DNA of 24,728 nucleotides from a candidate division FCPU426 bacterium (GCA_030637655.1 DAOWGI010000056.1:1-24728); one strand, 5' to 3'. Positions 10,208 to 24,591 are shown, counted from the first letter of the stretch. Numbers and translations are program-made. Notes: generated by a model not told the origin, from the sequence alone.

Positions 10208-12037
10208 TTAACGATATTTTTTTTGAAAAACATTCTTCTGCATCTCCTGTAAAATTTCAATCTCCCTCAATGTTCCAGCCATATTTTCATCATTCGTATA
10301 AAAAATATCAATATTTTTATTTTTAATAAATAAATCAATTTCTTGCTTGGAATCAGTCTTTCCTTGATATAACTCCACTTTTCTAGCATATTTATTATCA
10401 AAAAGCGGGTAAATATAATTATCCGCACCTTTATAATAATACCCAATAGTTTGCACTCCGGGTAATTTGTATATAAAAGCAAATGGATTAGGTGTTGGCA
10501 TATTATTTCCGTATATTGCCGTGGCATTCAGGGGTATTGGTAACCTTATAAACGTTTTAAATCTGCCTTTGTCCACAAAAGCTCCTAATCCTAGTGAAAT
10601 GGTTATTGAAACAGCAAAAATACACAGTATTATTATTTTCAGGATGTCGCTCTTGAATTTTGTGATTAAACCGCCAAAAGCAATTGCAATTGCACCCGGA
10701 AACCAGATAACGTATTTAAACCACCAAGGATAAGGCGCGACAATCATTAAAAAAAGAATAAAAGGAGTGATAAAAAGCAAAGCGGTTAATACTATTTTCC
10801 TGCGCAAATAGTAAGATTTTATAAATAACCACAGAGCAAATACACTTGTAGGTAAAAGAAAAACAAACGCTTGCCCTCCCCAGCCGGAGGTCTCTGACAC
10901 TAAGTACTGCTTTCCATCTATTATTCTACCTAAACCTTTTATATTTAATATAAAATCCTGCCAGGAAGAAGATACGTTTCCCACTTCTTTCCCGGGCAGT
11001 ATAACATTAGTAAAAAGTGATACTTCTTGAGGATATATGGGATTTTGAAATAAAAAGATATTTTTAATATACCAAAATCCGCCGGTCAAAATCATCACCA
11101 GGAAAAGGATTGCCGCATTGACATAATTTTCTTTTAAATAAATCAGCCACTTTTTTTGTAATAAAGAAAGCAGCACAAAAAAGGATAAAACACCCCCTAA
11201 TATTTTCGTGCCTGCCAAAAGACCCAAGACCGCGCAAAGCATATACGCGTTGGCCACGCCGGGTGATTTTTCCAAACGCAATCTAATATAGATGGCGCAC
11301 AAAAATAATGCAGCCATGGGCATATCAGCCAGACAATATTTGGCAGTTTCCACAACAATGGGCATGCATACAAAAAAACCCGCCGCCCAGACCGCATTTT
11401 TTGCAGGTACCCTTAATTCCCGGGAAATTCCATAGACTGATAAAAAAGCCAAAAAAGCAAAGAGCAATCCAGGCAGTTCAATGATTAAATCTATGTTTAG
11501 CAACTGAAAAAACCAATAGTTTAGCAGGGCTACGTTTAATGGGGAAAAAGTCGCGTATTCAGCTGAAGTTGGATAAGGCAGTAAATTTTTATTCTGATGC
11601 CAATAGGGCAAATTCGTGATGTGATATACTATACTGTCCCAACCGAATTCCGGAAAAAGAATAATACAGAATAATTCATAAATACCCAAAATAACCAGCA
11701 TAACCAACAGAACACGGTCAATAACACCAAACGCCATTTTTTCTTTCTTGATAATTTGCCGCTTTTTAAAAATCTTGAAGAAACCGTTTTTATTTTTCAA
11801 GAAGAAAAAAATCATACTACAGCCAACAAGAATAATTACGAGATAGGTTATAGGCGATAAAAATCGTAAAGCATATCCGGCAATTGCTTCCAGCGCCACT
11901 ATGCTTGCGATAAATATAACCATCGCGCTGACTGCCCGGTCATGCCACGTTTGCCACAAATAACCGGCAATAAATATTGCCGCGCTAATTAAAATCCCCG
12001 TATTAATCCATTGAATAACACACATCAGTAAGGTCAT
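10208..12037 (-). CDS. GT-C fold integral membrane glycosyltransferase (GT39/ArnT/PMT-like), AT-rich
   Basis: Many TM segments; GWDSIVYH loop motif, DMPMA, GLLAGTK, and GGFWYIKNIFLFQNPIYP. Confidence 0.7.
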   Translation of the reverse strand: MTLLMCVIQWINTGILISAAIFIAGYLWQTWHDRAVSAMVIFIASIVALEAIAGYALRFLSPITYLVIILVGCSMIFFFLKNKNGFFKIFKKRQIIKKEKMAFGVIDRVLLVMLVILGIYELFCIILFPEFGWDSIVYHITNLPYWHQNKNLLPYPTSAEYATFSPLNVALLNYWFFQLLNIDLIIELPGLLFAFLAFLSVYGISRELRVPAKNAVWAAGFFVCMPIVVETAKYCLADMPMAALFLCAIYIRLRLEKSPGVANAYMLCAVLGLLAGTKILGGVLSFFVLLSLLQKKWLIYLKENYVNAAILFLVMILTGGFWYIKNIFLFQNPIYPQEVSLFTNVILPGKEVGNVSSSWQDFILNIKGLGRIIDGKQYLVSETSGWGGQAFVFLLPTSVFALWLFIKSYYLRRKIVLTALLFITPFILFLMIVAPYPWWFKYVIWFPGAIAIAFGGLITKFKSDILKIIILCIFAVSITISLGLGAFVDKGRFKTFIRLPIPLNATAIYGNNMPTPNPFAFIYKLPGVQTIGYYYKGADNYIYPLFDNKYARKVELYQGKTDSKQEIDLFIKNKNIDIFYTNDENMAGTLREIEILQEMQKNVFQKKYR

Positions 12038-12043
12038 TATTTT

Positions 12044-13051
12044 TTAATACCATACATATAAATCATATATTACTTTCCCACCACCGCCTGCGGATTGATA
12101 AAATACAATTGTGTTTTCACCCACACTCCACTGAGATAAATCTCCGATATCGGCTCTCAATGAATCCGTCGCGTCGATCGGCCCGGATATTCCTGCGCGG
12201 CTTAATACCTCACTGGTAATCTCCACTCCATTGAGACTAATCCGCAGATCACTTAGAAAAGTTTTTGCCGTGTAGGCTGAAACAATTGCCGCAACACCAA
12301 TATCCCCTCCGCTTGTTCCTGTATTTATTGAAAAACTGTAATTATGGACGTGACTTGAATCATTATTATCTATCCAGCCTGGTTGCATATGGTCAGCACC
12401 TGCGGCATTACTCACAATCCATCCACTTCCGCCGGGGCCATAACCTGTTCCGACTCTCAAATCGTGGGAATGAGAAACATTGTTATTACCCGTTGTGCCA
12501 CTATGATCAGCAGAGTGTTGATGCAAGGCAATTTCCCGATAATATATTTCATTAAATTTTTGCAAATGCAGCGACAATGTGATCTCCCGGGGTGTTTTGG
12601 TCAGCAATACATAAAACGTCCCGCCGGAATAATCCGTAATGTCCTTTTCACCTGAGTGCACTTGAGGTATGTTTACATACTCAGCCCGGATCGCGTACGG
12701 CGTGCTATTCAGCGCTTGACGCGGTGACATGGGCGGATCAGCTCCGACCTTTACCTCTAAATAATAATTCTCCGAAAAATCCATGGTTTGCGGAAACGCA
12801 TTTGCCGGAGGTCCGCCCAGTACCAGGTTGAAATATCCGTCCTTAGTATCCGCCGAATAAACTCCCGACCATTCCAAATTACCTCCGGTCAGGTTATCGT
12901 AAATCGATAATGTCAAAGAATAACTACCGTCCGCAACAGGATTACCTTCAGCCCCCGTTAATCTTCCTTGATAATTTATCGTTTTAGGAATTTCTGCAAA
13001 AGCACAACAAGCAATAAGTATCCCACATATAATGAAGATTGTTTTTTTCAT
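12044..13051 (-). CDS. Secreted fibre-like protein: INYQGRLT N-terminal domain plus HxH-repeat region
   Basis: Signal peptide (CCAFA-E); N-terminal domain homologous to 18735..19556; HQH, HSH and HVH motifs in Gly/Ser/Thr-rich context; AAAGGAG RBS. Confidence 0.65.
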   Translation of the reverse strand: MKKTIFIICGILIACCAFAEIPKTINYQGRLTGAEGNPVADGSYSLTLSIYDNLTGGNLEWSGVYSADTKDGYFNLVLGGPPANAFPQTMDFSENYYLEVKVGADPPMSPRQALNSTPYAIRAEYVNIPQVHSGEKDITDYSGGTFYVLLTKTPREITLSLHLQKFNEIYYREIALHQHSADHSGTTGNNNVSHSHDLRVGTGYGPGGSGWIVSNAAGADHMQPGWIDNNDSSHVHNYSFSINTGTSGGDIGVAAIVSAYTAKTFLSDLRISLNGVEITSEVLSRAGISGPIDATDSLRADIGDLSQWSVGENTIVFYQSAGGGGKVIYDLYVWY

Positions 13052-13081
13052 AACTCAATTTTCTCCTTTGAATGGAAGTAA

Positions 13082-13693
13082 TTATTTGATTAAAGCATTT
13101 TTTTTAATAATGACAGTAGTCTTACCTTCATTATTTCTTGCCTTAATGTATAGAAGGTAGACTCCGTTCGCCATATTAGCGGCGTTCCATTGCCACATAT
13201 TTGTACCTGCGGGTAATTGATCCCAATGCCTTGATAAAACAAATTGATTTTGAGGAGTAAATATTTTCAATTCCACTTCAGCCGGCATAGCCAAATTAAA
13301 ATAGATTTTTCCAATAACACCGCGGATTGGATTAGGCGCAGCATATACCCAATCTTTATGCATAATCTCACCGCCAAAACCGCGGATCACAGTCGGAGTA
13401 TAGGTTGGAGTTGCTGTTATAGTTATTGTTGGAGTAGGAGTGGGCGAAAGCGGAAGCATGTAATAAGTATTAAAAAAGCCGGATTGAATTGAATAGGTGG
13501 CGCTGAAAATTTGTCCTACAATTCCCTCCCCGGCAGAATCATGAAGCTTTTTTCCAGACCCTGAGTAGGTGTTGCCAAAAGCATTAATAACCGTCTGATT
13601 TAAATCATAGTTTGGTGAAGAAGCAGCCAGTGCGGATATAGAAAAAGGCAAAAATATTATTACAATGAAAATATTTTTGTAAAATAATCTCAC
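13082..13693 (-). CDS. Small secreted protein with Pro/Thr linker and T9SS type-A-like C-terminal sorting domain
   Basis: GTG start with GGAGGG RBS; signal peptide; short S.NY.L...GF domain; SPTPTPTITITATPTYTPT linker (13391-13447); YAAPNP...ANGVYLLYI...IK CTD. Confidence 0.75.
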   Translation of the reverse strand: MRLFYKNIFIVIIFLPFSISALAASSPNYDLNQTVINAFGNTYSGSGKKLHDSAGEGIVGQIFSATYSIQSGFFNTYYMLPLSPTPTPTITITATPTYTPTVIRGFGGEIMHKDWVYAAPNPIRGVIGKIYFNLAMPAEVELKIFTPQNQFVLSRHWDQLPAGTNMWQWNAANMANGVYLLYIKARNNEGKTTVIIKKNALIK

Positions 13694-13746
13694 TTGCTTT
13701 CCCTCCGGCTACACAAATATATATAAATATAAAAGACTTTTCGACC

Positions 13747-13955: not shown

Positions 13956-16253
13956 TTACTTTTTTGTTTTTCGTGTTGACTGCAGCGTGGTGCCCATATG
14001 AATAGTTCCGTCCTGGATTTTCATGCGGCCCAAAACAACATCTCCTGAAAAGCCGGACAATTTAAATAAGGGATTAAAATCTTCCACCACCGGCTGGAGC
14101 CACCAGCCTGGTATAGGCAACCAGCCGAGTTTCACGGAATGAATCTGAAAGCGAAGATTTTGCGAGGTTTTCACCTGCGGATCAGGAATTACGCGCAAGG
14201 AAATCGTGGCTTGCACTGGAAAAAGACCCGTCCAGCGCGCGGTTAACTTGTTGGCTTGGCAGGACACACGCAAAGATTGGATAGCGCCTGTAGCCTGACT
14301 GATGGATTGGTTCAAATCCTCTGCTTCCAGCAAGACCTCATTGATTTTCATGCGGCCCACCGTATACGGCAGTAATTTTCCGATTTCCAATTTTTCGATA
14401 TCCAGTATCAGGTTGTCGAGTTCGACATTCAATCGCTGAAAAGGCACACCCAAGGGATTGTGCTTAAAGTCTCCGACCAAACCCTGCTCAGCACGTACCA
14501 ATATTTTTTTAAAGCGTCCCAAGCGGGTTTCCGTCTCGGAAAACGGAACAATATCAATCGCATAGGTTTTGGCATCCTGGATATAGGCAGAGAGCAGATA
14601 ATGGAGTTCCTCTTTGACTAACGCTTCAATGGTTTGGGACGATAGCTCGGAGAGCACCTCTTGGCGCGCGTACAGCAAGGCCTCGGACTTGTCCGGCAAG
14701 CTATATTTTTGCAGCAGTTCAAAGCGCGGAGCCTGGGCCCGTGATTCAATCTGTAAAGCCAGACTGATCTTTCCGGGCTTTTCGGTATTAAAGTCCAGAC
14801 CCAAGCTTCCGGTCTTGGTCACCGCGTAATCCGTAAACATAGGCCAATTCGAGGTACTGCTCAACCGGACCATGTTTTTTCGGCTTGATTGCTCAACCAC
14901 AAAATTTACCCGGGTAAAATTAGCTGCATCCGGGATAATACGCAAAATGGGTTTTCTGCCCAAATTCCGGCTCCGCTCCTCAACCTCGGCTAAGATGGCA
15001 CCTAATGGCCAAGCGCGCGCATCCGGCGCCAAGGAATCAATAATTGGTGTATCCATGATCTTAATCTGCGTCAACTTATGCAACCAGCCGGTTTTGGCTC
15101 CCAGATGCACGTAACCCATATGTATTAAGGCCAGCACGGCTATTCCCAGCACCACTTTTTCTTTCACCGGTTTTTTCAATCCCTGAATCCACGTCAAGCC
15201 GGCCAAACTGAGCAGGGGCAGCAAAGGAATAATGTAACGGTGATCTTTGTTGCGAATCAGCATTAAAATCAGATATGGACCAGCCAGCCAGATCGCCATC
15301 CATCCGGATACTTTGTGGCGTATAAAAAACCAGATCAAGCCGATATATATCACCACAGCCATCGGGATAGAGGTTTGTTTGAAAACAGAACCCAGATAAT
15401 AAAACCAGGCTTTGGGCGAGAGCAGGGAGGGGTCATTTTCCAGTACACCCCGGGCATGGATATAGCCTGAGGTGTTTTTAACAAGTTTGATAAAATGAAC
15501 CACATACCAAGGACCAGCCAGGCATCCGGCAATAGCATATGCCAGCAACACAAAAAACCATATTCGACCGAGCTGCTTGTGTTTCTGCACCGTTGCCACC
15601 AAGGCTGCAATAAGGGGCGGAAAAGCCAGAAAAAATAGGGCGCTCCATTTAGTCAGCATGGCCAAACCTAAAACCACGCCGTAGGTAATGACCCAGCGCT
15701 TGCGCAAAAATTGCTCTGACGCCAGAAAAGCATAAAATCCCAAGGTTACAAAAAAAGCCAGCGAAATATCCAGCATAAAGACCTTGGACTGAATAATGAC
15801 CGCCGAGCCGGCCGCAAAAACATAGCCGGCCAGAATGCCGGTTTCCTGACCAAAGGTCCTTTTGCCCAGTAAAAAAAGCACCCAGATGATTCCGCCAATG
15901 AAAAAGACATCTAAAAAAGCAGCCGTATCGGTTGAGGGACTGGTAAGCAAGAAAAACAAACCGGCGATAAATTCTGTCAAAGGCGGATAAAAATCGGACA
16001 AATACAAGAGGTTGTGAAGCAAACCCCATCCTCCCTGTTGCAACACTTTAAAATATCCCACAGCACCCATATAATGGGTAGACTCATCCCAGGCCAAAGG
16101 ACGCGCATCCACAAAGAGCCAGACCAGGTTGGTTAAAATTATTGCCGCCAACAATGCCGCGAGGTAGGCAGTCGTGGAAATATTGCATTTTCCTGAGAAT
16201 ATTTCCGGGATTTTTATAAATATAGTATTCTTCGGCTCTGCCACCCAATTCAC
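13956..16253 (-). CDS. ArnT/GT39-like GT-C glycosyltransferase with C-terminal DUF2993/LmeA-like domain
   Basis: PLAWDESTH, FYPPL, MLDISL, GLAMLTKW, PWY and KDHRYIIPLLP motifs; the ~230-aa C-terminal domain is paralogous to that of 16321..18618. Start position uncertain. Confidence 0.8.
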   Translation of the reverse strand: MNWVAEPKNTIFIKIPEIFSGKCNISTTAYLAALLAAIILTNLVWLFVDARPLAWDESTHYMGAVGYFKVLQQGGWGLLHNLLYLSDFYPPLTEFIAGLFFLLTSPSTDTAAFLDVFFIGGIIWVLFLLGKRTFGQETGILAGYVFAAGSAVIIQSKVFMLDISLAFFVTLGFYAFLASEQFLRKRWVITYGVVLGLAMLTKWSALFFLAFPPLIAALVATVQKHKQLGRIWFFVLLAYAIAGCLAGPWYVVHFIKLVKNTSGYIHARGVLENDPSLLSPKAWFYYLGSVFKQTSIPMAVVIYIGLIWFFIRHKVSGWMAIWLAGPYLILMLIRNKDHRYIIPLLPLLSLAGLTWIQGLKKPVKEKVVLGIAVLALIHMGYVHLGAKTGWLHKLTQIKIMDTPIIDSLAPDARAWPLGAILAEVEERSRNLGRKPILRIIPDAANFTRVNFVVEQSSRKNMVRLSSTSNWPMFTDYAVTKTGSLGLDFNTEKPGKISLALQIESRAQAPRFELLQKYSLPDKSEALLYARQEVLSELSSQTIEALVKEELHYLLSAYIQDAKTYAIDIVPFSETETRLGRFKKILVRAEQGLVGDFKHNPLGVPFQRLNVELDNLILDIEKLEIGKLLPYTVGRMKINEVLLEAEDLNQSISQATGAIQSLRVSCQANKLTARWTGLFPVQATISLRVIPDPQVKTSQNLRFQIHSVKLGWLPIPGWWLQPVVEDFNPLFKLSGFSGDVVLGRMKIQDGTIHMGTTLQSTRKTKK

Positions 16254-16320: not shown

Positions 16321-18618
16321 CTACTGAAAACGCAATTTGCCTTCTGTAATTTTTACTTCACCCAATTTTACCTGGCCAGGAATTTTTTCCATTGGAATCA
16401 GAGGATTATAATCTTGCAGGCCCCAATGCACAAGAGTTTTAGGTATCAATACCCGGGCAATAGTGATGCGCTTTATCTCAAACCAGAGATTATCCGATTG
16501 CGTGTGAATAGTATCCGGTTTCACTTCTAAAGCTACGTCCACCTCAGCTTGCGGTTTGTCCAGCCAACGGGCCTGAATCATTCCCTCTTTAAAAAAGAGC
16601 CGCAATTTTCGTTCATCACCCTTGGCCTTGGCCAGCGCTTGATTCACCTTCTGATCCTGTAATTCAATCTCATTCACTACCAGGCTGCCCAAGCTGATAA
16701 TCTCAAGCCGGTGTTTCTGAGCCGCTTCCAGATCCAGCACCAGTTGTGATATGGTAATATCCAATACTTCAAACGGAAGACCCAGGTCTTGGTGTTGAAA
16801 ATCTCCGAGTTCGCCGCCAATAGCGCGGATACGCAGCTGCTCAAATTCTCCGCAACGAATTTTTTCCGTAGAAAATGGCTCCATGAATATCTGCAAGTCT
16901 TCCGTATTTCTGACATATTTGGCCAGCCCGGACCGGATATTGTTTTCCAGAGTATAGAACACTTGGCTGATGCTTTTATCCTGTGTGATTTCCATATTTT
17001 TAGTCAAAAGACTCACTCTCGCTTGTTCTTGTTCCTGCTCCCAGGACAGGCACTGGTTTTCCAGTTTGGCAATGGTCAACACCCGCACTTGGCCTACCAG
17101 CAAAGCATGCGTAATCACATGCGGATAATCTGCCGGCAGGGCACGGAAACCATTGTCCAAATAATATTGCGCCCGATCCAATTCTTTGATAAACACTAAC
17201 CGCTGCCGTGCTGCTCTGGGCAGCAGGCGCGCACTGTCTGCCAACACCGGATCGGTCTCATATACTTTGATCATCTTAGCATCCTCCTGCGCAAGCAGGG
17301 TTTGCAGTCCGTGATAAAAAGTCAGCCCCCAGTAGTCCAATGCAAATTTGCCGTGCGCGCCTTGAATCCCGCCTATTCCCTGTTGAAAAAAGAGGTGTTG
17401 ATTCGGATGCATACGAACCATTGTCAACAACACACACATCAGGTAACAAGCGAGCAGGCTAATAAATGTCCAAGTTAGGATGGAAATCCGTTGCTTGGAT
17501 ATTTTGCTCTTCAGCCAAAGGTACGCTGATTTTCCTCCCTGAATCGCAATCAACAACATGGCTGGATAAATAAAATACAGATGCCGCCAACCATTATACA
17601 GGACAGACCGGAATAAAATTACTGCGCCCAAGGGCAGAAAAAACCAGAGCAAGAAAATCACATCCATTTTTCTGTTTCGCAAAACCCATAATGGCTGCTT
17701 AATCAATTCCTTAGTAAAAACCAGGAGTCCCAGTATGAATCCCAGCGAATATAGAATCGGCGTGGTAATAAAAATCCAGACTGGCGCGTAATGCCAGGGC
17801 AAGGCATCGGATTTTACCATTTTTCCCAAGTAGAGCATCTCCCCCAACCAGGGAAAACGGCTCATTTCTTTCAACGCCAGGACAAGATTGGCCAACGGTT
17901 GTTTCCAGAGCGTGGGCCAAAACAGAATCATCAGGACAAAAAAGAGCAGACCATAAACCAATAAACGTGATCCCTCCATAATCCATTGCTTCCTATCCTG
18001 CCGAACAACATAGATATCCCAGCCCTGCAACAGACTGGTAAACATCGGAACCAGCAGACCCAACACCCGAATATCCACAACCAGAGCGCAGCTGAGTGCG
18101 TGCCCTATCACCCACCACCAATTTTTTTTATCCAAGTATTGCTGTAAAGTATACATACTAATAATAAACAGACATAAAAAAGGCAAATCTTTGGAATTAA
18201 AAAAAGCATGCGCAAAGATGCGAGGACTGAGTATCAGGAGCAAAGCTCCCAGTATTCCCCAGCCCCAATGCCTAAAGTGATGTTTACAGAACAAATAGAA
18301 AAACCAGACCGCAGTAAAAAATAATAAAAAATTTAAGGTGTGACGGAGCAGGTATTTATGCTGTGTATCTTTGAGATGTAATATTTTTTCCGCACCAAAT
18401 AAAAACAGCTCAAAGGCCGGTCCGTAAATATTATCTTTATAGGTAACCAGTCGTTGGTCCCCGGCAAAGATATAATTCCAATTGATTTCACCATAACGCC
18501 GCTGTGTGGGTTCGGCAATGGAAAGACCGTAATCTTTAACAATCACTAATCCTACAATGAACAAGACTACAAAAAATAGCAATACTGTGGTTTTTTGAAC
18601 TGTTTGACTTAAATTCAA
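16321..18618 (-). CDS. GT-C glycosyltransferase (GT39/PMT-like) with C-terminal DUF2993/LmeA-like domain
   Basis: DYGLS..E, YGPAFE, SPRIFAHAFFNSKDLPF, LPWHYAPVWIFITTP, LYNGWRHLYFIYP and LDYWG motifs; TTG start. Confidence 0.8.
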   Translation of the reverse strand: MNLSQTVQKTTVLLFFVVLFIVGLVIVKDYGLSIAEPTQRRYGEINWNYIFAGDQRLVTYKDNIYGPAFELFLFGAEKILHLKDTQHKYLLRHTLNFLLFFTAVWFFYLFCKHHFRHWGWGILGALLLILSPRIFAHAFFNSKDLPFLCLFIISMYTLQQYLDKKNWWWVIGHALSCALVVDIRVLGLLVPMFTSLLQGWDIYVVRQDRKQWIMEGSRLLVYGLLFFVLMILFWPTLWKQPLANLVLALKEMSRFPWLGEMLYLGKMVKSDALPWHYAPVWIFITTPILYSLGFILGLLVFTKELIKQPLWVLRNRKMDVIFLLWFFLPLGAVILFRSVLYNGWRHLYFIYPAMLLIAIQGGKSAYLWLKSKISKQRISILTWTFISLLACYLMCVLLTMVRMHPNQHLFFQQGIGGIQGAHGKFALDYWGLTFYHGLQTLLAQEDAKMIKVYETDPVLADSARLLPRAARQRLVFIKELDRAQYYLDNGFRALPADYPHVITHALLVGQVRVLTIAKLENQCLSWEQEQEQARVSLLTKNMEITQDKSISQVFYTLENNIRSGLAKYVRNTEDLQIFMEPFSTEKIRCGEFEQLRIRAIGGELGDFQHQDLGLPFEVLDITISQLVLDLEAAQKHRLEIISLGSLVVNEIELQDQKVNQALAKAKGDERKLRLFFKEGMIQARWLDKPQAEVDVALEVKPDTIHTQSDNLWFEIKRITIARVLIPKTLVHWGLQDYNPLIPMEKIPGQVKLGEVKITEGKLRFQ

Positions 18619-18734: not shown

Positions 18735-19556
18735 TTATTCTTTCAAACAAAATATTACATTAAAATACCGCGGCACATTTGAATCGCTGCTTATAGCATG
18801 ATTATGTAAATATGCCGTCGCTCCCCCGGTTTGTCCTGAAAAAGAATGATTATGCCAAATAGGTGCAGTACCTGTTGTGGATGCCATTGCACCACTTTGG
18901 GAGCTGGATGCTGGATTAGTTCCTGTTGTCCCACTATAACTGTGTGTATGATCTACCCCGCCGTTCTGCGTTGCACCACCATGACTATGCGAATCCGCAC
19001 CTCCGGCGTATTCCCCTGAATACGAGCCCGCCCCTCTCGGAAAGAGTCCGTCTAATTCAGTTAATCGCCGGTATCCCACAGGACAGGATGCGCCTGTCCA
19101 TAATATAATTGTTCCACTTGGAACACCGTCATCCGCGGTTTTTGCATGGTTCGCTTCTTCCGCCCGCATGGCATAAGCCACACTCACGATCTGCTGACGT
19201 CCGAATGTTTCATCAACACTATCGATCCTAACGGTCAATTCCATCCAAAGATTCTGATCAAAATCCGGCAAGACGGATGTGCCGCCTAAAATCACATTGA
19301 ATGATCCGCCTGCCACCTGGATTCCTCTCGTCTGGGCGATGTAGTGTTCCTCATTCCACACTTCAGTCCCTCCGGTTTCCTGATCCCATAAAATAAATTT
19401 CATATCATACACACCATCTGCGACTATATTCCCCGCCTTATTTGTCAGCTTCCCGGAATAATTAATCAGCTTCGGTACTTCGGCAAATGCCGGCAGCACA
19501 CTGACAAAATATATTAATACAATTATAAACATTCCACCTGCTTTTTTCATAGCCAT
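18735..19556 (-). CDS. Secreted fibre-like protein: INYSGKLT N-terminal domain plus phage tail-collar-like domain with HxH repeats
   Basis: Signal peptide (PAFA-E); VPSGTIILWTG..CPVGY...LDGLFPRG...NVPRYFNVIFC collar signature; HSH, HTH, HNH and HNH motifs; AAGGAG RBS. Confidence 0.75.
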   Translation of the reverse strand: MAMKKAGGMFIIVLIYFVSVLPAFAEVPKLINYSGKLTNKAGNIVADGVYDMKFILWDQETGGTEVWNEEHYIAQTRGIQVAGGSFNVILGGTSVLPDFDQNLWMELTVRIDSVDETFGRQQIVSVAYAMRAEEANHAKTADDGVPSGTIILWTGASCPVGYRRLTELDGLFPRGAGSYSGEYAGGADSHSHGGATQNGGVDHTHSYSGTTGTNPASSSQSGAMASTTGTAPIWHNHSFSGQTGGATAYLHNHAISSDSNVPRYFNVIFCLKE

Positions 19557-19581: not shown

Positions 19582-20538
19582 TCAAAACTCATACTCCAAA
19601 CTCACCTTGTGACTTATCCCCATATCCCCCTGGGGTGCCAGGGCATAATCCACTTTCCAGTTTTGGTACGCAATACCGGCGCCGCCGGTAATACCAATGA
19701 AATTCGTCGTGGTGTGTCCGAAATTCTGATTCCACCCCAGCCGTATCTGAAACAGTTTCAAACAGGTGTATTCAATCCCTGCACTGGCTATGGGATTCTC
19801 GTCATGTTTGAGGTTGAGGTCCGCCAAAAGTATAAAAATATCATCAGCTGTGAAACCGCAGGGCAGTGTGTACAGAATACCGGTTTTTAAAATCATGGGA
19901 AGCAGGCGGTTTTCTTCGGCTATGCCCACATTGAGCAAGGCCAAGCCGCTGACCAAATCCCGGGAAATACGGTACTGCGCGCCAAAATCCAGGGAGCCTA
20001 AAAACCTGGCATCAGTATCGATCTGATCATACGCCAGTTGCAAGCCAACACCGATAGAAATATTTTCAGCCGCTGACATGGCTAATCCGGCTTTGCCTGC
20101 AAGTACATAAGGCGTGTAGGTTTCATTACCCGGAAGCGGATTGCCGCCGGCATCCATCCCCCACTTCCTGATGAAACCAAAATTGATGTATCTCAACTCT
20201 GCGCCAAAAACACTGTTCTCATAGACCGGCTGAGCATAGGCCAAATGTTCAAGATTAATGGCACTGATCCAGGCATGATGGCTTAGCATAATACGCCGCG
20301 TGCTGATACCCAGTAATCCTGCGGGATTCCAATACAAAGCATTAATATCCCCTGACATAGCGGTAAAGGCATTGCCAAGACCGCTCGGCCGGGCGCCGGC
20401 AGGAATGAGTAAATATTTGGCTGCGGTTGAGGCTGAAGACAATATTTCCACTTCTGCTGCTGCCAACTGAGGCAGCAAGGCCAAAAGCCATAGAAGCATT
20501 GCAGCCTTCCTCATATTCATCATCCTTTCACCCCCCAT
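19582..20538 (-). CDS. PorV/PorQ-family outer-membrane beta-barrel
   Basis: YLLIPAGARPSGLGNAFTA...ALYWNPAGL N-terminal motif; C-terminal VDYA...SHKVSLEYEF. The true start is probably ATG 20523-20514. Confidence 0.85.
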   Translation of the reverse strand: MGGERMMNMRKAAMLLWLLALLPQLAAAEVEILSSASTAAKYLLIPAGARPSGLGNAFTAMSGDINALYWNPAGLLGISTRRIMLSHHAWISAINLEHLAYAQPVYENSVFGAELRYINFGFIRKWGMDAGGNPLPGNETYTPYVLAGKAGLAMSAAENISIGVGLQLAYDQIDTDARFLGSLDFGAQYRISRDLVSGLALLNVGIAEENRLLPMILKTGILYTLPCGFTADDIFILLADLNLKHDENPIASAGIEYTCLKLFQIRLGWNQNFGHTTTNFIGITGGAGIAYQNWKVDYALAPQGDMGISHKVSLEYEF

Positions 20539-22317
20539 TTATCGCAAAACCGCAAACGCCTTGGTTATCACTGCTTCCTGACCTGTAACCAGCTCACGCG
20601 CTGTCAAACGGAAAAAATAAGTTCCATTGACCCAATCTCCTATATCCAATTGCAAGCGGTTGATTCCCGTCAGGCCGGAATAATTTTGTAGGCTGATTTT
20701 TCTTCCAGCTGCATCATAAAATTCCAATTTAATTTCTGCCGGTTTTGACAAAAAATAACGGAGATTGAATCTACCGTCACGCACAGGCGAAGGCGCTACC
20801 CAAACTTCTTGTTCAGGGCAAAAACTATTGCGATTTATGTCAAGCGCATAGTGCGAAACATGGCCCGGGTTTCCTAAAAGATCAATGGCGCGGATATGAA
20901 AATAGTATTTCCCATTCGCCAGATTGGAGTAACTAATGCTGGTAACATTAGACGCTTTTTGCACTGTTGAACCGGGATCTGTGGAGGCTTGCGTGTCAAG
21001 CAATAGCGCGAACCCGGCAATTCCAATGCCGCCCTCATTATCCCGGCTTACCCAGCTAAATTCAGGATAATTATTGCCCGAAGACTTTGCGCCAACATTA
21101 CTCTGGCAGGTAATAACCGGAGCCGCGGGGTCTATATCATCGCGCAGAGCGTGAAAAATCTGCGTAGCCGTACCGGCGGCGGCATAACTATAATAAATAT
21201 TGAAATTGCCGCGATCAGCGGCCAGCCGGGGAGAACTGACACTTGTGCCGTAAGAAAACCCGCTGTCTTCGCCCCATGACACACCTTGGTCCAAACTCAT
21301 ATTAAAACGAATCCGGTAATTGCCGGCATCATTATAGACCCAGGCTGCTATCATTTTACTGCCAAATACCGCCAATACCGGTTCTGAACAAATACCTGTA
21401 CTGGTCGATATGGTTAATTCAGAAAGCAAGCCCACATCCGCTTTGCCAATACGCAGCATGACTGCTGTTCCATTCGCTTGTTGCCATAAGGCATAAAAAT
21501 CATCATTGCAAAAGGTTACATAGGGCGCTTCACAATCATCTGTGGAAGCATTGGATAAAAAATAATTATTGTTCCATGTTTCCCCCAAATCCGCAGACTC
21601 CCGATATTTGATTTGTTCATATCCGCCGATGCTTTCCTGCCAATAGGCCAACAAGCGCGCAGACCCAAATGCAATGCCTGGATGAGAAGCTGAAAAGCTG
21701 TTTAGAACCATGGGTGTGGATAAATTCAATCCATCAGCCGGGCCTTTGCGGTACTTGATCTGGCTGGTTTCTTCATCCTGCCAGATTAAATGCAGTGTAT
21801 TCATATTATCCACCGTTATAGCCGGAGATTTCGCGCGAACTACGCTGGTGACCGACCCTGCCACAACAACGGGATTGCTCCAGGTATTTCCATCATCCAG
21901 GCTCCGGCTGAAATAAAGCTGTATATTACCGCCATAATATTCTTCCCAAACAGCATAGATATTATTGCTTGTATCTGAGCACAAACACGCGCTACCTGCC
22001 TGAATACCTCCGGTTTCATTAGATAACACGGTATGCATAGACCAGTTATGATCTGCGTCCGGTTTGCGCTGGTAATACAAAGCTTGCATGCCGGTGCGGT
22101 TATCAAGAAACAGGAGATGCTGCGTACCATTCGGTGTAATCACTACATCCGCGACATCGACTGTATTGGGGCTATTAGTAATCTGTGTTTCGCTGCTCCA
22201 ATAAGAAAGCGCTAAGACGCGGGTCGCAATTGTCAAAAGTAACAGAATCAGGATGCAATATTTTTTCAAAACTTTGCCTCTTACATTCAATTTGGGGGTG
22301 CTGAAATAGTCACACAT
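20539..22317 (-). CDS. Secreted BNR/Asp-box beta-propeller protein with FnIII-like domain and T9SS-like CTD
   Basis: Asp-boxes SLDDGNTW, SADLGETW and SLDQGVSW; YYFHIRAIDLLGN; WVAPSP...NGTYFFRL...AVLR CTD. Likely start TTG 22269 (GAGG RBS). Confidence 0.75.
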   Translation of the reverse strand: MCDYFSTPKLNVRGKVLKKYCILILLLLTIATRVLALSYWSSETQITNSPNTVDVADVVITPNGTQHLLFLDNRTGMQALYYQRKPDADHNWSMHTVLSNETGGIQAGSACLCSDTSNNIYAVWEEYYGGNIQLYFSRSLDDGNTWSNPVVVAGSVTSVVRAKSPAITVDNMNTLHLIWQDEETSQIKYRKGPADGLNLSTPMVLNSFSASHPGIAFGSARLLAYWQESIGGYEQIKYRESADLGETWNNNYFLSNASTDDCEAPYVTFCNDDFYALWQQANGTAVMLRIGKADVGLLSELTISTSTGICSEPVLAVFGSKMIAAWVYNDAGNYRIRFNMSLDQGVSWGEDSGFSYGTSVSSPRLAADRGNFNIYYSYAAAGTATQIFHALRDDIDPAAPVITCQSNVGAKSSGNNYPEFSWVSRDNEGGIGIAGFALLLDTQASTDPGSTVQKASNVTSISYSNLANGKYYFHIRAIDLLGNPGHVSHYALDINRNSFCPEQEVWVAPSPVRDGRFNLRYFLSKPAEIKLEFYDAAGRKISLQNYSGLTGINRLQLDIGDWVNGTYFFRLTARELVTGQEAVITKAFAVLR

Positions 22318-22324
22318 CGTATCT

Positions 22325-22352
22325 GTAGGGGCGTTTAATTAAACGCCCCTAC
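22325..22352. repeat. GTAG-type REP-like perfect palindrome (28 bp)
   Basis: GTAGGGGCGTTTAA|TTAAACGCCCCTAC, intergenic. Confidence 0.85.
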
Positions 22353-22361
22353 CAGGACATA

Positions 22362-23318
22362 TTATAATTTCAATATCATTGTCAAACGATGCGTATCAGA
22401 CAATCCATCTATCATGATGCCATAGGCATAATCCAGCTGCCAAGTCCGGAAGCGGTATCCAACGCCTCCGTAAATACCTTGCGTATCCAGGCCACCGCGG
22501 ATAGCCACGAAATCCCATACCTGCCATTCGATGCCCGTATGCGGGATTATTTTCCAAGCCCGGGGAATTTCAATATCCAGGGAGGTGGTCAGGGGAAGCG
22601 AAGCAAACTTATACACCCCCCCCAGTCTAAGGGTGGGATATACAGACTCTTGTCTTCCTGTACTCCACACCAGACCCGGACTCATGTTTCTGAGCACCGC
22701 ACCAAATGCCCATTGCGACCATTCTTTTTTCGGATTAAAATAGCCGGCTATATCCAAACCAACGCCTTGCCCGTATTCACCCGCAACTTGATGATGATAG
22801 TATTTAAGGGCAGCGCCTACTTTCCATTCCGGGTTCAAGGTAAGCCCGTACGCCAAGGCAAACGCATTCTGAAAATCTTCTGTTGCTCCAAGCAGTTGTC
22901 CGCCGGCAGTACGCACCTCAATGGCTCCAATCCGGTTATGCTGCCAGCTGACACCCACACTGCCATATCCCTTTGGCAGCGTCACAATGTAACTGGCAAA
23001 TGCAGCCCGTCTTTCCAAAGTCATAGGCAGGGCCATGGCGGAAATTTGTACTTCATACGGCCTCAGTTCATCTAAAAAGGCCGGGTTCCAATAAACCGCT
23101 GCGCCGTCATCCGGACGGGCTGTAAACGCACCACCCAAAGCATGCGCGCAGGAAGTTAGGGATAATTTCAACCAGGCCAGATTGTCCAGACGGTATCCGC
23201 TGTCTTCTGCAGTGGCCTGGCATGCCAAAAATGTCAACACACAAACGCACACATAGATTAACCGTTTACACTGGTACATGAAAATTTCCCACCCTTGAAA
23301 GTATATATTCATGGGCAC
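22362..23318 (-). CDS. PorV/PorQ-family outer-membrane beta-barrel
   Basis: ALGGAFTA..DDGAAVYWNPA motif; C-terminal LDYAY...THRLTMILKL. Likely start ATG 23279. Confidence 0.8.
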   Translation of the reverse strand: MPMNIYFQGWEIFMYQCKRLIYVCVCVLTFLACQATAEDSGYRLDNLAWLKLSLTSCAHALGGAFTARPDDGAAVYWNPAFLDELRPYEVQISAMALPMTLERRAAFASYIVTLPKGYGSVGVSWQHNRIGAIEVRTAGGQLLGATEDFQNAFALAYGLTLNPEWKVGAALKYYHHQVAGEYGQGVGLDIAGYFNPKKEWSQWAFGAVLRNMSPGLVWSTGRQESVYPTLRLGGVYKFASLPLTTSLDIEIPRAWKIIPHTGIEWQVWDFVAIRGGLDTQGIYGGVGYRFRTWQLDYAYGIMIDGLSDTHRLTMILKL

Positions 23319-23334
23319 ACACAGTACGCGCCTG

Positions 23335-24591
23335 TCATTTTACAACCGAAAATTTTTCTGTCTGCAAGATGGTTCTTTTCCCACTCTGTGTTTGTATTAT
23401 GACCCTATACAAATATACGCCCCGGCTGATTTTATTCAGCGGCAAAATAGAATACTGATAGCCGGACGGTTTATTATCCCTTATTTTCGCAATACGTTCG
23501 CCAACTACATTATATATCTCGATTATGACTTTGCTGGACTCTTCGCAGAAATAAATGAACCGCACTTCCGGTCCTGTAGCAGGATTCGGATAAGCAGCAC
23601 TTTTTTCTGCTGCTATGACGGGTTTGGTATCAAAAACCACATCAATAGTTTTAGGGCTGCTTTCCAAATCAAGTTCTACAGCCTCTATCACTTGGGGATA
23701 ATATCCAAAATAATTAAACCGTAGCTGATAGGTAGCAAAAGGCAGTTCTGTTATTTGATAGGTCCCTTGCGCAACGGTTATGGTTTCCTGTTGCTTTTGC
23801 CCGTTACGCCATGCTTCTACTACCACCCCACTTAAGCCGAATCCGGTTACGACTGTGGTGACTATTCCCTGAATGGCTCCACTCATAATGATTTGAATTT
23901 GATAGACTGCCTCTGTCCCTGGATTTCCACTCTGATCCCTGGCAACACAGTGGAAATACCAGATCCCATTACCAACTAGAGTATAGCTCTTCTGCGCTGT
24001 GGTCACATATTCCCAGCCTGATTCTGAAACCAAGGTATTAAGAACAGCGTTTTTATCCAACTTAACATAATAACCGGCTACGCTTTGGCTTTGACCAGAA
24101 TCCCCGGAATGCACCCAATAAAAGCTCGGATTGGCATGGGCATAGGGCTGACCAGCCTTGGGATGGGTTGAGGATAATATTATTGGCGCATTCGGTCCGC
24201 CCTGGTCCGAGACTGCTGAGGCTTGATAATTACCCCTGCTTTCTTCTATGCCGCCAACCACAGCCTGTGCCACATAAAAATAACGCTTCCCGCCAATTAA
24301 ATTGCCCTTGTCATCCACATAATCCGGTTGAACAGTATCGCCGGCTAAACTGATTTTTTCTCCTTTAACACCAAAAGTAACTGATCGATATATATTATAA
24401 TGTTCACTGCCTGGTATGGCTGACCAAGACAAAGCAATATCTCCGCCAGGTTCTGAAGTAGCAGTCAAATCCGTAATGGAATGGATCTGCGCAGATACTA
24501 TGACTGCCATGCGCTTGTTCCCGGTAATTTGCTCATTATAGGCCACATCTACAGGCCGGATTTCGTAATAATACTGGATATTCCCAAGCAA
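23335..24591 (-). CDS. FnIII / carboxypeptidase-regulatory-like domain protein with T9SS type-A CTD; probably 5'-truncated
   Basis: LSWSAIPGSEHYNIYRS, WYFHCVARDQSGN, GAIQGIV...GTYQI and AYPNP...IYNVVGE...GVYLYRV...SVVK motifs. No signal peptide; in-frame TGA five codons upstream of the TTG. Confidence 0.75.
   Translation of the reverse strand: MLGNIQYYYEIRPVDVAYNEQITGNKRMAVIVSAQIHSITDLTATSEPGGDIALSWSAIPGSEHYNIYRSVTFGVKGEKISLAGDTVQPDYVDDKGNLIGGKRYFYVAQAVVGGIEESRGNYQASAVSDQGGPNAPIILSSTHPKAGQPYAHANPSFYWVHSGDSGQSQSVAGYYVKLDKNAVLNTLVSESGWEYVTTAQKSYTLVGNGIWYFHCVARDQSGNPGTEAVYQIQIIMSGAIQGIVTTVVTGFGLSGVVVEAWRNGQKQQETITVAQGTYQITELPFATYQLRFNYFGYYPQVIEAVELDLESSPKTIDVVFDTKPVIAAEKSAAYPNPATGPEVRFIYFCEESSKVIIEIYNVVGERIAKIRDNKPSGYQYSILPLNKISRGVYLYRVIIQTQSGKRTILQTEKFSVVK

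Follow-up and report, generated by a model that had tools for sequence, protein, structure and literature searches.

Introduction

The mosaic adhesive trimer (MAT) fibres of Bdellovibrio bacteriovorus are surface-exposed and prey-binding, and the primary report describes a conserved β-rich domain of ~130 aa right after the signal peptide, which presumably binds an unidentified surface element (Caulton 2024, PMC10769870). The Pam pilus of CPR bacteria has PamT as its predicted tip pilin, and the Pam operon co-localises with a 'tail fibre-like protein' (bioRxiv 2026, PMC13278184). Here we describe a locus of a candidate division FCPU426 bacterium, lying in a window (the whole stretch of DNA analysed) of 24,728 nt, that encodes two fibres with a MAT-type N-domain and, next to one of them, a small protein whose N-terminal module, SxNY, weakly resembles a segment near the start of PamT. 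This SxNY protein may fasten the fibres to the cell surface.

Results

Organisation of the locus

The region 10208-24591 contains ten genes, all on the minus strand, in the order CTD protein, PorV-family barrel, CTD protein, PorV-family barrel, fibre A, two GT-C, small CTD protein, fibre B and GT-C (Table 1). Positions and single orientation agree with an earlier note on this DNA, which had moreover seen the same gene logic twice. The repetition holds loosely, the half with the PorV genes being devoid of the small partner and the half with the partner being devoid of PorV; similarly, the CTD-PorV pair is present, but in two copies where one had been counted. Further genes at the locus encode a polysaccharide deacetylase, an O-antigen-ligase/GT9 fusion and a GT9 protein.

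Table 1. Genes of the fibre locus and parts of the small CTD protein.
Feature	Position	Strand	Evidence
CarboxypepD_reg + T9SS type-A CTD protein, 418 aa	23335-24591	-	family profile matches
PorV/PorQ-family outer-membrane barrel (other copy of two)	22362-23318	-	NF033709 98.8 bits vs cut-off 90
BNR-like secreted protein + T9SS type-A CTD, 592 aa	20539-22317	-	Por_Secre_tail 29.9 bits vs 27
PorV/PorQ-family outer-membrane barrel, fibre A side	19582-20538	-	NF033709 118.7 bits vs 90
Fibre A, 273 aa: signal peptide, MAT-type N-domain 19149-19481, C-terminal part	18735-19556	-	NF053851 E 2.6e-4
GT-C-like membrane protein, 765 aa, first gene after fibre A	16321-18618	-	six-frame PMT_2 25.1 bits
GT-C (PMT_2/PMT), 765 aa	13956-16253	-	PMT_2 38.2 bits, PMT 37.3 bits, each above cut-off
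Small CTD protein (partner/adaptor candidate), 203 aa	13082-13693	-	SxNY module + T9SS-type CTD
SxNY module of partner, ~55 aa	13457-13624	-	N-terminal, behind signal peptide
Pro/Thr linker of partner	about 13385-13456	-	
T9SS-type CTD of partner	about 13085-13381	-	
Fibre B, 335 aa: signal peptide, MAT-type N-domain 12677-12994, C-terminal part	12044-13051	-	NF053851 E 6.2e-6
GT-C-like membrane protein, 609 aa, directly after fibre B	10208-12037	-	PMT_2 E 0.0067; position enrichment

Fibres with a MAT-type N-domain and exchangeable tips

Several features that the earlier note had read from the fibres stand. Both fibres start with a Sec signal peptide of AxA type and have an N-terminal domain of ~105 aa in common (35% identity, E 2e-22 by pairwise comparison); its motif INY[QS]G.LT is real, with N7, Y8, Q9 and L12 at least 90% conserved and G10 invariant among 73 N-domains; and neither fibre matches a CTD or autotransporter family, the sorting-domain profiles TIGR04183 and PF18962 giving no match to A or B at E ≤ 0.01. 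An AF2 model of the fibre B N-domain is all-β (pLDDT 88.9). A profile of the domain collected 75,122 cluster representatives at E ≤ 1e-3, and 53 of the top 54 match NCBIfam Bdello_MAT_N (NF053851), always over profile positions ~2-78. NF053851 is a Bdellovibrio subfamily model with a cut-off of 60 bits, which a single one of the 54 relatives passes and below which both fibre B (26.1 bits) and fibre A (20.8 bits) fall. These profile matches show homology between the predicted N-domain of the fibres and that of Bdellovibrio MAT fibres.

The remainder of fibre A contains four HxH motifs and a collar-like end, and that of fibre B, which has three HxH motifs, differs from it. There are five fibre paralogues in the genome, with C-termini unrelated to one another, and in a relative (L098) with eight fibre genes, seven of which stand in tandem behind one SxNY gene, mean identity is 76% between N-domains versus 27% between tips. 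Comparison of the predicted proteins shows that the tips are mosaic, and fibres A and B are best explained as short members of a MAT-type fibre superfamily, built from a constant ~105-aa β-sandwich N-domain and an exchangeable C-terminal tip. One SxNY gene for seven to eight fibres with conserved N-domains suits either an anchor or an assembly helper.

In common with MAT fibres, those of the window have a signal peptide followed by a conserved β-rich N-domain, exchangeable tips and many paralogues per genome. Unlike MAT fibres, they measure 273 and 335 aa rather than ~1000 aa, lack an S74 domain and match only the first half of the MAT model, below its cut-off. Moreover, Bdellovibrio is predatory whereas the host here is not a known predator, and a partner gene is conserved here whereas the Bdellovibrio literature covered describes none.

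A short module encoded beside fibre genes

The module of the small CTD protein consists of three short S-x-N-Y-x-L-like strands and ends in GF[FW]. Only 4 of the 10,884 ORFs of this genome match the SxNY model, and 4 of 4 adjoin a fibre gene. At 78 fibre loci from different phyla, 19 SxNY ORFs occur in 19 loci, all on the strand of the fibre, with the cross-phylum matches outside the model seeds invariably located within 890 bp of it (9/9); in 30 related genomes, 33 of 36 matches lie ≤3 kb from a same-strand fibre N-domain. Another phylum carries the module in 173 of 201 genomes, and when its best 30 loci were picked by the SxNY module alone, 25 had one to three fibre genes directly upstream. 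Although these counts overstate independence because related genomes are kin, the pairing of fibre and SxNY genes is tight, repeated and found across phyla.

The SxNY model search found no such gene in 59 of the 78 cross-phylum fibre loci. Among the relatives, only 33 of 78 fibres have an adjoining SxNY gene, and fibre A itself has none, the nearest being 5 kb downstream; many fibres therefore work without the module or share one in trans. The small CTD protein had been proposed earlier as a partner of the fibres. The non-random pairing bears this out, but the conserved element is the N-terminal ~55-aa SxNY module and not the CTD, which as such was rejected as the conserved neighbour. The product of 13082-13693 is best explained as a putative conserved functional partner of fibres A and B.

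What the module is joined to varies. A T9SS-type CTD follows it in 10 of 23 partners and Dockerin_1 in 3 of 23 (in another phylum, 19 of the best 30 loci), no further domain could be recognised in 7 of the 22 scanned, and a word-limited search returned 63 SxNY module proteins, many of only about 127-143 aa. Fusion to Dockerin_1 suggests plug-in attachment to a scaffold; it resembles the cohesin-dockerin attachment of cellulosomal and other surface proteins, although the window partner has no dockerin.

Once signal peptides were removed, PamT was the sole family matched repeatedly (8 of 23 modules), and the window module alone aligns with PamT (NF058579) positions 28-78 (E 8.6e-4). The best score, 31.2 bits against a cut-off of 240 bits, covers only positions about 5-92 of the 241-position model; the relation is that of a predicted common module, not of PamT membership. 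The 'tail fibre-like protein' beside Pam operons is a further likeness, whereas in the window partner a CTD takes the place of the Ig-like pilin domain of PamT, and this locus has no Pam pilins or chaperones.

The CTD of the window partner scores just under both cut-offs (TIGR04183, 21.9 versus 23; PF18962, 17.4 versus 27); that of its paralogue on C56 reaches 29.3 against 27, and that of the L051 partner 29.7. In a structure model of the window partner, the CTD has pLDDT >90 and a fold compatible with a T9SS CTD, the fold matches including PorU and PorZ chains (ranks 8 and 19). The SxNY module is modelled at a pLDDT of 38-55, and this low confidence is compatible with folding upon a partner.

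PorV-family barrels and T9SS machinery

As in T9SS cargo, a T9SS-type CTD closes both upstream proteins and, by prediction, the partner, and PorV/PorQ barrels follow CTD genes. In the T9SS, PorV is the shuttle for type-A CTD cargo, and type-B CTD cargo has cognate PorP/SprF-like proteins encoded next door. Unlike in a T9SS, the fibres lack a CTD, and the window barrels, which both attain the PorV/PorQ family level, stay far under the PorV equivalog cut-off (NF033710; 44.5 and 60.2 bits versus 250 bits). Nor do the 46 PorV-family matches of the genome resemble a single shuttle: 20 of them, including both window copies, directly follow a CTD protein, the CTD ending <800 bp upstream. The CTD-to-PorV pair is a genome-wide module, a separate cargo-barrel unit.

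The earlier note had also suggested looking for SprA, and none was found in this assembly, which is 91.55% complete, whereas 3 of 3 control genomes score over the cut-off; the SprA-like ORF of a relative (G009) gave no tblastn match in this genome either. PorU sortase was likewise not found, with CTD-part matches only. Absence of SprA and PorU is not proven, because of the completeness of the assembly. GldM/PorM had no match in the genome, its relatives or the SprA-positive genomes, a set that includes no positive control.

GT-C genes downstream of fibres

Identification of the adjacent genes as GT-C is firm for 13956-16253, which exceeds the PMT_2 cut-off (PF13231, 26.1 bits), but not for the other two, which fall below it in six-frame searches (21.3 bits, E 5.1e-4 for 10208-12037; Table 1). 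A C-terminal LmeA-like domain is common to the products of 16321-18618 (PF11209, E 1.3e-4) and 13956-16253. As neighbours of fibres, GT-C genes are enriched directly downstream within this bacterial family, as the earlier note's pattern implied, and rare in other phyla: across five genomes of the family, 12 of 36 fibres have a same-strand PMT_2 match ≤5 kb downstream versus 0.51 expected, and only 4 of 77 cross-phylum loci have a GT-C near the fibre. Genomes of this phylum hold 4-55 PMT_2 matches each, so GT-C are abundant, and the GT-C genes differ from locus to locus. An Elusimicrobiota locus (L073) repeats the arrangement of SxNY-CTD, PorV-family barrel, fibre and two PMT_2 genes. The Pseudomonas GT-C gene for TfpW, which acts in pilin glycosylation, stands directly after the pilin gene. 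The window likewise places a gene for a GT-C family membrane glycosyltransferase after that of a putative surface fibre, and the GT-C varies by locus, as the fibres do; the window fibres are not type IV pilins, unlike the Pseudomonas protein.

Discussion

From gene neighbourhoods and domain architecture we infer fibre-SxNY binding, surface display, the export route and glycosylation, and we give an even chance to the proposal that the locus encodes adaptor-mounted, possibly glycosylated surface fibres docked by their SxNY partner. Against it weigh the fibres that have no adjoining SxNY gene, the searches that found neither SprA nor PorU in this assembly, the scores below cut-off of the fibres, of the partner CTD and of the PamT similarity, the shortness of the fibres, the kinship of the genomes counted, and the abundance of GT-C genes in this phylum together with their rarity near fibres elsewhere. 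The SxNY module would dock the fibre N-domain, the Pro/Thr linker would serve as a stalk, and the T9SS-type CTD would take the partner to the outer membrane and hold it there, possibly via one of the many PorV-family barrels, so that the fibre would be mounted on the cell surface with its tip outward. The GT-C after the fibre genes would be a lineage-specific addition that probably works on the periplasmic side, using a polyprenyl-phosphate sugar to O-glycosylate either the fibre or the Pro/Thr linker, and the two upstream CTD-PorV pairs would be separate cargo-barrel units of the kind repeated across the genome.

Tight adjacency on the same strand would suit a chaperone as well as an anchor, and the SxNY protein could instead be a fibre-specific helper of assembly or export (a chaperone or pilot), comparable to the small assembly genes located beside phage tail-fibre genes, and no lasting anchor or part of the displayed structure. 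The predicted disorder of the module alone fits such a helper, as do the partners that lack a recognisable further domain and the small size of many module proteins; repeated fusion to surface-attaching domains (T9SS CTD, dockerin, the pilin part of PamT) points to a role at the surface, a chaperone in the periplasm having no use for them, and makes the helper unlikely. The earlier note had instead looked to the neighbouring PorV-like barrel to export or anchor fibres that have no sorting signal of their own. A PorV-family gene does end 25 bp upstream of fibre A, L008, L009 and L103, which are syntenic relatives, show the same order of PorV then fibre, and the SxNY/fibre pair has a PorV-family neighbour in L073, in L098 and in the single lineage of L092 and L093. 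PorV binds T9SS CTDs, however, and the fibres have none; no PorV gene comes closer than 6 kb to 4 of this genome's 5 fibres, a local PorV model finds a PorV-like ORF in 3 of 78 cross-phylum loci (L008, L009, L073), and 4 of 20 relatives' loci have an adjoining PorV versus ~1 expected from gene density, two of the four being orthologous. These counts do not support PorV as a fibre component; the barrel at 19582-20538 probably partners the upstream CTD protein rather than fibre A, and export or anchoring by the barrel itself appears distinctly improbable.

Fibres that bind or process an envelope glycan, kept in the periplasm or on the glycan layer of the cell itself and taking part in polysaccharide biogenesis together with the GT-C and LPS genes, would account for the enrichment of GT-C downstream and for the continuation of the locus into the deacetylase and GT9 genes; one relative's fibre also lies inside a polysaccharide gene cluster (L028), and the C36 paralogue may have a β-helix-like C-terminal part (by eye; PHROGs gave no match). 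We regard such a role as very unlikely, given that the GT-C link is limited to this lineage, L073 and L050 whereas the SxNY link spans phyla, that hypervariable tips on a constant N-domain form the pattern of an adhesin and not of a biosynthetic enzyme, and that the Bdellovibrio relatives are surface-exposed (PMC10769870). Least credible, and close to negligible, is an origin in which a prophage, tailocin or contractile injection system left these genes behind, its tail fibres being the fibres seen here: tips of fibre A (E 0.0058) and of the C100 paralogue (4e-12, over repeats) have weak PHROG tail-fibre matches, but the N-domain and the whole of fibre B have none, 50,697 phage records searched by tblastn with fibre B gave no match, the window contains no further phage gene and the fibres have Sec signal peptides. 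The HxH motifs of the tips, which we take to be reminiscent of phage fibre tips, were counted in favour of this origin.

Beyond the adaptor-mounted fibres proposed for this locus, a wider and more tentative possibility, which we hold to be somewhat doubtful, is that SxNY is a general docking partner of MAT-type N-domains, a universal plug mounting exchangeable fibres in many phyla and on many anchors. Diderms of Firestonebacteria-, Chlorobiota- and Elusimicrobiota-like type would offer a T9SS-type CTD stalk as the anchor; Ignavibacteria-like and Zixibacteria-like lineages would use a dockerin-cohesin scaffold, and CPR bacteria the Pam pilus tip. If this is true, the SxNY module would be the surface element left unidentified for the MAT fibres of Bdellovibrio.

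Gene content of the fibre locus

The ten genes of the locus are listed in the table below. They bear out the gene list of the earlier note, whose underlying observation is real, except that pairs of a protein carrying a T9SS-type C-terminal domain (CTD) and a PorV-family barrel number two and not one. 3' of the fibre locus, Pfam and NCBIfam identify a polysaccharide deacetylase, followed by an O-antigen-ligase/GT9 fusion, which is a single 781-aa ORF (6702-9047) with Wzy_C (O-antigen-ligase) and GT9 heptosyltransferase domains, and then by a second GT9 heptosyltransferase gene (5570-6619). A promoter and terminator scan of the window was overall not above shuffles; a terminator-like hairpin at 9851-9827 on the minus strand (11 pairs plus a T-run), located between the genes for the last PMT-like membrane glycosyltransferase (GT-C) and the polysaccharide deacetylase, is a possible end of the fibre operon.

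Genes of the fibre locus, with the family matches on which domain assignments are based
Position	Strand	Product	Length (aa)	Basis
23335-24591	-	CarboxypepD_reg domain + T9SS type-A CTD	418	Pfam/NCBIfam
22362-23318	-	PorV/PorQ-family barrel		NF033709, 98.8 bits (cut-off 90)
20539-22317	-	BNR-like protein + CTD	592	Pfam/NCBIfam
19582-20538	-	Second PorV/PorQ-family barrel		NF033709, 118.7 bits (cut-off 90)
18735-19556	-	Fibre A	273	
16321-18618	-	Membrane protein	765	
13956-16253	-	Membrane protein	765	
13082-13693	-	Small protein with CTD-like end	203	
12044-13051	-	Fibre B	335	
10208-12037	-	Membrane protein	609	

The fibres resemble mosaic adhesive trimers

Fibres A and B are alike in their N-terminal parts (35% identity, E 2e-22), where a basic, hydrophobic signal peptide ending in AFA is followed by E-[IV]-P-K and the rest of a constant domain of ~105 aa (N-domain); as the earlier note had it, neither a CTD nor an autotransporter domain was matched in either protein by Pfam or NCBIfam. 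The motif INY[QS]G.LT is likewise real, being conserved across an alignment of 73 mature N-domains in which G10 is invariant and P3, N7, Y8, Q9 and L12 are each at least 90% conserved. The C-terminal parts are unlike, with four HxH motifs in fibre A and three, in another context, in fibre B; the end of fibre A resembles that of a paralogue on contig C56. HxH motifs serve as axial iron-binding sites in the tips of phage fibres.

A profile of the N-domain matches 75,122 cluster representatives at E<=1e-3 among 1.84 billion proteins (32,135 at E<=1e-10 and 108 at E<=1e-30); the domain has no model in Pfam, and its close relatives are named solely "hypothetical protein". Bdello_MAT_N (NF053851), the N-terminal family of the mosaic adhesive trimer (MAT) fibres of Bdellovibrio, is matched by 53 of the 54 top representatives, always at about positions 2-78 of 162, with one of the 54 above the cut-off; for the window fibres the scores are 26.1 bits (fibre B) and 20.8 bits (fibre A), the cut-off being 60. 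AlphaFold2 (AF2) folds the window N-domain with confidence (pLDDT 88.9) into an all-beta sandwich, for which Foldseek returned zero matches at E<=1e-3 in PDB and BFVD, and VIA wide retrieved generic Ig/FnIII-like sandwiches throughout (top Z 7.7; tool noise mark 8). Against PDB sequences, fibre A gave zero matches at E<=1, fibre B a single chance-level match (E 0.75), and the N-domain profile five matches at E<=1, none significant (top 9rce_H, E 0.031, domain E-value 0.38).

A phage-fibre identity was considered and rejected: PHROG families were matched by neither the N-domain nor fibre B, the tail-fibre match of the fibre A tip is weak (E 0.0058), and a tblastn search of fibre B against 50,697 phage records gave zero matches. 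On these grounds, together with the NF053851 matches, we assign the window fibres to the MAT-type superfamily, as short and divergent members.

A 2024 paper describes MAT fibres as the repertoire by which Bdellovibrio bacteriovorus recognises prey: surface fibres of about 1000 aa with exchangeable adhesive tips and, right behind the signal peptide, a conserved, beta-rich N-domain of ~130 aa for which the authors report no structural homologue and presume a surface element, yet to be identified, as binding partner (PMC10769870). In the main text of that paper, how MATs cross the outer membrane and what holds their N-domain at the surface are left open, and neither point is addressed in the MAT passages of later reviews. 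Unlike Bdellovibrio MATs, the window fibres are only 273 and 335 aa long.

The genome assembly, which is 91.55% complete and totals 3.28 Mb in 120 contigs, contains five fibre genes: those of fibres A and B and three others, each on a contig of its own (C56, C100 and C36). Their N-domains are 32-50% identical and their C-terminal parts mostly unrelated (22-34%), with the exception of the fibre A/C56 pair (57%). In a relative, a locus with a PorV-like gene and one gene of the partner type described below continues into seven tandem fibre genes, with an eighth nearby (L098; G002:C12:26000-43000); mean identity among these fibres is 76% (55-93) for N-domains and 27% (12-45) for tips, so that the array looks like a cassette store of adhesive tips.

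A small module-bearing protein accompanies the fibres

Directly 5' of the fibre genes on C56 and C100, and of fibre B in the window, lies a gene for a ~200-aa partner; the C36 fibre has a 369-aa version directly downstream. The three short partners are 49-59% identical and built alike, with a ~55-aa module behind the signal peptide, then a Pro/Thr-rich linker and finally a CTD. The module, which we call SxNY, is made of three short S-x-N-Y-x-[LI]-like stretches with G-F-[FW] at the end.

Its occurrence was followed in 78 loci around N-domain relatives, taken from one genome per species and spanning Zixibacteria, Ignavibacteria, Chlorobiota, Omnitrophota, Elusimicrobiota, Verrucomicrobiota, CPR groups and others. 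Clustering by blastp of ORFs up to three genes from the fibre revealed that the SxNY module adjoins fibres in several phyla and that the C-terminal parts of its proteins differ. A local model of the module converged on 23 ORFs, 19 of them in 19 of the 78 loci and exactly four among the 10,884 ORFs of this genome, a number reproduced by a separate profile search. All 22 ORFs that could be placed relative to a fibre gene are on the same strand, 19 of them within 260 bp; at L041, where the fibre ORF was not called by the script, the SxNY ORF ends 66 bp before the fibre match in locus coordinates. Ten of the 19 locus matches are seeds chosen among fibre neighbours, and the nine non-seed matches all lie no more than 890 bp from a fibre.

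Searches of 30 genomes of the same phylum returned 36 matches to the module, spread over 17 genomes, and 78 to the N-domain, spread over 21; since these genomes are kin, the counts do not represent independent events. Within this set, 33 of the 36 module matches share contig and strand with an N-domain match no more than 3 kb away; of the other three, one follows the N-domain of a 1272-aa fibre at a distance of 4.2 kb, and two are on contigs without a fibre match. Conversely, the module adjoins 33 of the 78 fibres. Fibres are present in 16 of the 17 module-bearing genomes, and the module in one of nine fibre-less genomes. Twenty fetched loci of relatives show two gene orders, namely an SxNY-CTD protein before a fibre of 220-340 aa, often then a multi-spanning protein of 440-640 aa, or a fibre of 400-450 aa before an SxNY protein.

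An unbiased test, with loci chosen by the SxNY module alone, was provided by an Ignavibacteria-like phylum in which 173 of 201 genomes carry the module at E<=1e-4 (401 matches). Among the 30 best-scoring loci, a fibre N-domain was inside the 1.5-kb flanks in seven; enlarging the other 23 disclosed 18 more with one to three fibre genes (500-820 aa), on the same strand and directly 5' of the SxNY gene. Fibres are thus found at 25 of the 30 best loci, and at two of the other five the contig extends less than 1.3 kb upstream. The earlier suggestion that the small CTD protein is a partner of the fibre is therefore upheld, by 33 of 36 matches in relatives and 25 of 30 loci in another phylum, and the neighbourhoods of the N-domain across genomes return the SxNY partner and, locally, GT-Cs, but PorV only weakly.

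The linker and CTD of the partner constitute a distinct CTD subtype shared by nine other proteins of this genome (E 1e-21 to 7e-39; ordinary CTDs of the genome score 1e-5 to 1e-9), mostly of 890-1244 aa (for example C74:3266-3634, C70:10213-10554 and C39:63158-63547). In Kiritimatiellia, Verrucomicrobiota and Lentisphaerota (L042, L044, L046, L063, L065-L067, L071, L083 and others), the fibre belongs to another conserved trio, with a ~600-aa protein without Pfam match upstream (10 loci) and a giant of >2,300 aa downstream (12 loci); no SxNY module was found in these trio loci.

The module is fused to attachment domains and resembles the start of PamT

The C-terminal parts of the 23 partners comprise ten T9SS-type CTDs (Por_Secre_tail, FlgD_ig or TIGR04183 at E<=0.01), three Dockerin_1 domains and three larger multidomain or weak BACON_2 proteins, the remaining seven being without a recognisable domain. 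Among 30 Ignavibacteria-like partners, 19 end in Dockerin_1, one has EF-hand-like matches alone and ten have no recognisable domain. The window partner's CTD falls just under the cut-offs (TIGR04183 21.9 versus 23; Pfam 17.4 versus 27), and the Pfam cut-off is passed by its C56 paralogue (29.3 bits) and by that of a relative, L051 (29.7). In the AF2 model of the partner, built from 24 homologues, the CTD (residues about 105-203) has pLDDT 90-97 and the module and linker (30-100) 38-55; the CTD model matches many Ig-like domains, including those of Porphyromonas gingivalis PorU (rank 8, E 2.4e-4) and PorZ (rank 19).

The 63 module proteins retrieved by a word-limited search are all unnamed or called BACON-domain proteins, and in none of them does a Pfam family cover the module. 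A word-based search with the window module alone found nothing beyond itself, and the ESM Atlas look-up peaked at 0.86, below the tool mark of 0.9. With signal peptides removed, 8 of the 23 modules match the NCBIfam family PamT at E<=0.1 (best 4.4e-5), the window module aligning with positions 28-78 of 241 (E 8.6e-4); the sole other family matched is ArfA_OmpATb_N, by two modules, neither with an E-value below 0.062. In CPR bacteria, PamT is predicted to be the pilin at the tip of the Pam pilus, and pam operons are consistently accompanied by a "tail fibre-like protein" (PMC13278184). As judged from these alignments, SxNY proteins appear to share a module with PamT; because scores are far below the 240-bit cut-off, membership in the family is not claimed.

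PorV-family barrels probably belong with CTD proteins

The earlier note had considered a PorV-like barrel as an alternative device for exporting or anchoring the fibres, which is probably wrong. The genome holds 46 PorV/PorQ-family matches, 32 of them above the cut-off, and 20 of the 46 are preceded on their own strand by the end of a CTD at a distance of less than 800 bp; across the genome, each CTD cargo seems to have its own PorV-like barrel. As both window barrels (22362-23318 and 19582-20538) directly follow a CTD gene (23335-24591 and 20539-22317, respectively), they are best read as partners of the preceding CTD proteins. A PorV gene adjoins fibre A alone, the other four fibres having none within 6 kb. 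With a local PorV model, PorV-like ORFs were detected in 3 of 78 cross-phylum loci (L008, L009 and L073) and in 4 of 20 loci of relatives (L103, on the same contig as L009; L092 and L093, of one lineage; and L098), with the family confirmed by NCBIfam for L092, L098 and L073; since about one adjacency in 20 is expected from PorV gene density, the enrichment is weak. At L073, an Elusimicrobiota locus, an SxNY-CTD protein, a PorV-family barrel with an OmpA domain and a 1370-aa fibre are encoded in this order beside two convergent PMT_2 genes, which makes the locus a single independent recurrence of all four components.

SprA, a T9SS component named in the earlier note, has no match in this 91.55%-complete assembly; the same search scores above the cut-off in three of three Ignavibacteria/Chlorobiota genomes. 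A divergent SprA-like ORF of ~2150 aa, below the cut-off (E 1e-22 to 1e-27), occurs in two complete genomes of the family (G009:C2:8359-11697 and G006:C1:865312-868770), and tblastn with it gave zero matches in this genome. PorU searches of the assembly returned matches to its CTD part alone, and the GldM search is uninformative because it was silent everywhere searched, SprA-positive genomes included, and thus had no positive control. Just 5' of the fibre in relatives lies a protein of ~2360 aa (L006:409-7488, full length, 2359 aa; L007:29-3727, partial), of which the L006 copy has no NCBIfam match and is not detectably SprA, and the L007 copy has no Pfam match; homologues in this genome end at contig ends (C111:15464-18208, C27:25856-27907 and C6:14835-15089), one of them right behind a PorV-family gene.

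GT-C genes are enriched next to fibres within the family

The GT-C identity given earlier to the three membrane proteins is firm for 13956-16253 (PMT_2 38.2 bits and PMT 37.3 bits, both above cut-offs), but the other two remain below the PMT_2 cut-off of 26.1 bits in a six-frame search (25.1 bits for 16321-18618 and 21.3 bits for 10208-12037). The two 765-aa proteins have a common C-terminal domain of ~230 aa (29% identical, E 5e-33), with a weak LmeA-like (phospholipid-binding) match below the cut-off (E 1.3e-4). Because pairwise similarity was undetectable among the three window genes, a candidate on C100 and most other seeds, GT-C counts are based on Pfam PMT_2 instead of a local profile; the C100 candidate, a 607-aa protein encoded after the fibre, has no PMT_2 match and, in the part scanned, no NCBIfam family, and was left uncounted.

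PMT_2 matches number 15 in this genome and 4-55 in relatives, amounting to 92 in about 16 Mb over five genomes of the family with complete match lists. Twelve of the 36 fibres in these five genomes have a same-strand PMT_2 match no more than 5 kb downstream of the N-domain, against 0.51 expected from uniform placement (binomial P about 7e-14, inflated by kin and tandem genes), and the GT-C genes beside different fibres are mostly unrelated to one another. In the cross-phylum set, 234 ORFs are first or second neighbours of a fibre gene, and a scan of 209 of them (twelve of >1,500 aa and 13 others were left out, and nine of the 13 were scanned separately) found PMT-type families in only 4 of 77 loci (twice each in L009 and L073, once in L051 and, as a TMEM260-like protein, in L050), with otherwise heterogeneous neighbours. 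The link between fibres and GT-Cs thus nearly vanishes outside the bacterial family.

Discussion

In at least two phyla, and far more often than chance would allow, MAT-type fibres pair with proteins whose SxNY module resembles the start of the predicted pilus-tip protein PamT and is joined to domains, such as the T9SS CTD and dockerin, that are established as attaching proteins to the cell surface or a scaffold. We infer that the module docks onto the constant N-domain of the fibre, so that one partner could serve several fibres with different tips, as in the tandem array of the relative, and that the C-terminal part of the partner would fasten this complex to the envelope. The GT-C enzymes of this lineage may in addition attach sugars in the periplasm, either to the fibre or to the Pro/Thr linker; linkers rich in proline and threonine are targets of PMT-type enzymes. 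A 1:3 complex, in which the three SxNY-like strands would face a trimeric fibre, is speculation; a complex prediction with three N-domains (A4) and three SxNY modules (A5) scored 0.14 and 0.08 against a mark of 0.32 and counts neither way.

The gene pairing itself would be explained equally well if the partner were a chaperone or had a pilot role. Against anchoring by the partner stand fibre A and over half of the relatives' fibres, which have no adjacent partner, its lack in 59 of the 78 cross-phylum loci, the shortness of the fibres relative to Bdellovibrio MATs, and an assembly in which SprA and PorU were not found to handle the CTD; what argues for it is the fusion of one module to different attachment domains. 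With respect to the interpretation put forward in the earlier note, the small CTD protein is retained, as are the GT-Cs at a local level, and the PorV barrel is probably to be dropped.

MAT fibres are known, and the literature searched, which extended to the main text of PMC10769870, contains no description of the SxNY partner module, of its pairing with fibres or of a MAT anchor; the supplementary tables of that paper list MAT-like proteins of other bacteria, and the spread of the family may be partly in print. Should binding fail, an ordinary conserved operon remains. The interest lies in a conserved fibre-adaptor pair: the N-domain, whose family is very large, is accompanied in at least two phyla by a single small module, so far undescribed and joined to known attachment domains, which renders the anchoring of MATs a testable question and proposes a role for the tail-fibre-like gene beside the Pam pilus operons of CPR bacteria. 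The pair points to a widespread plug-in system for the display of variable adhesins in uncultured lineages.
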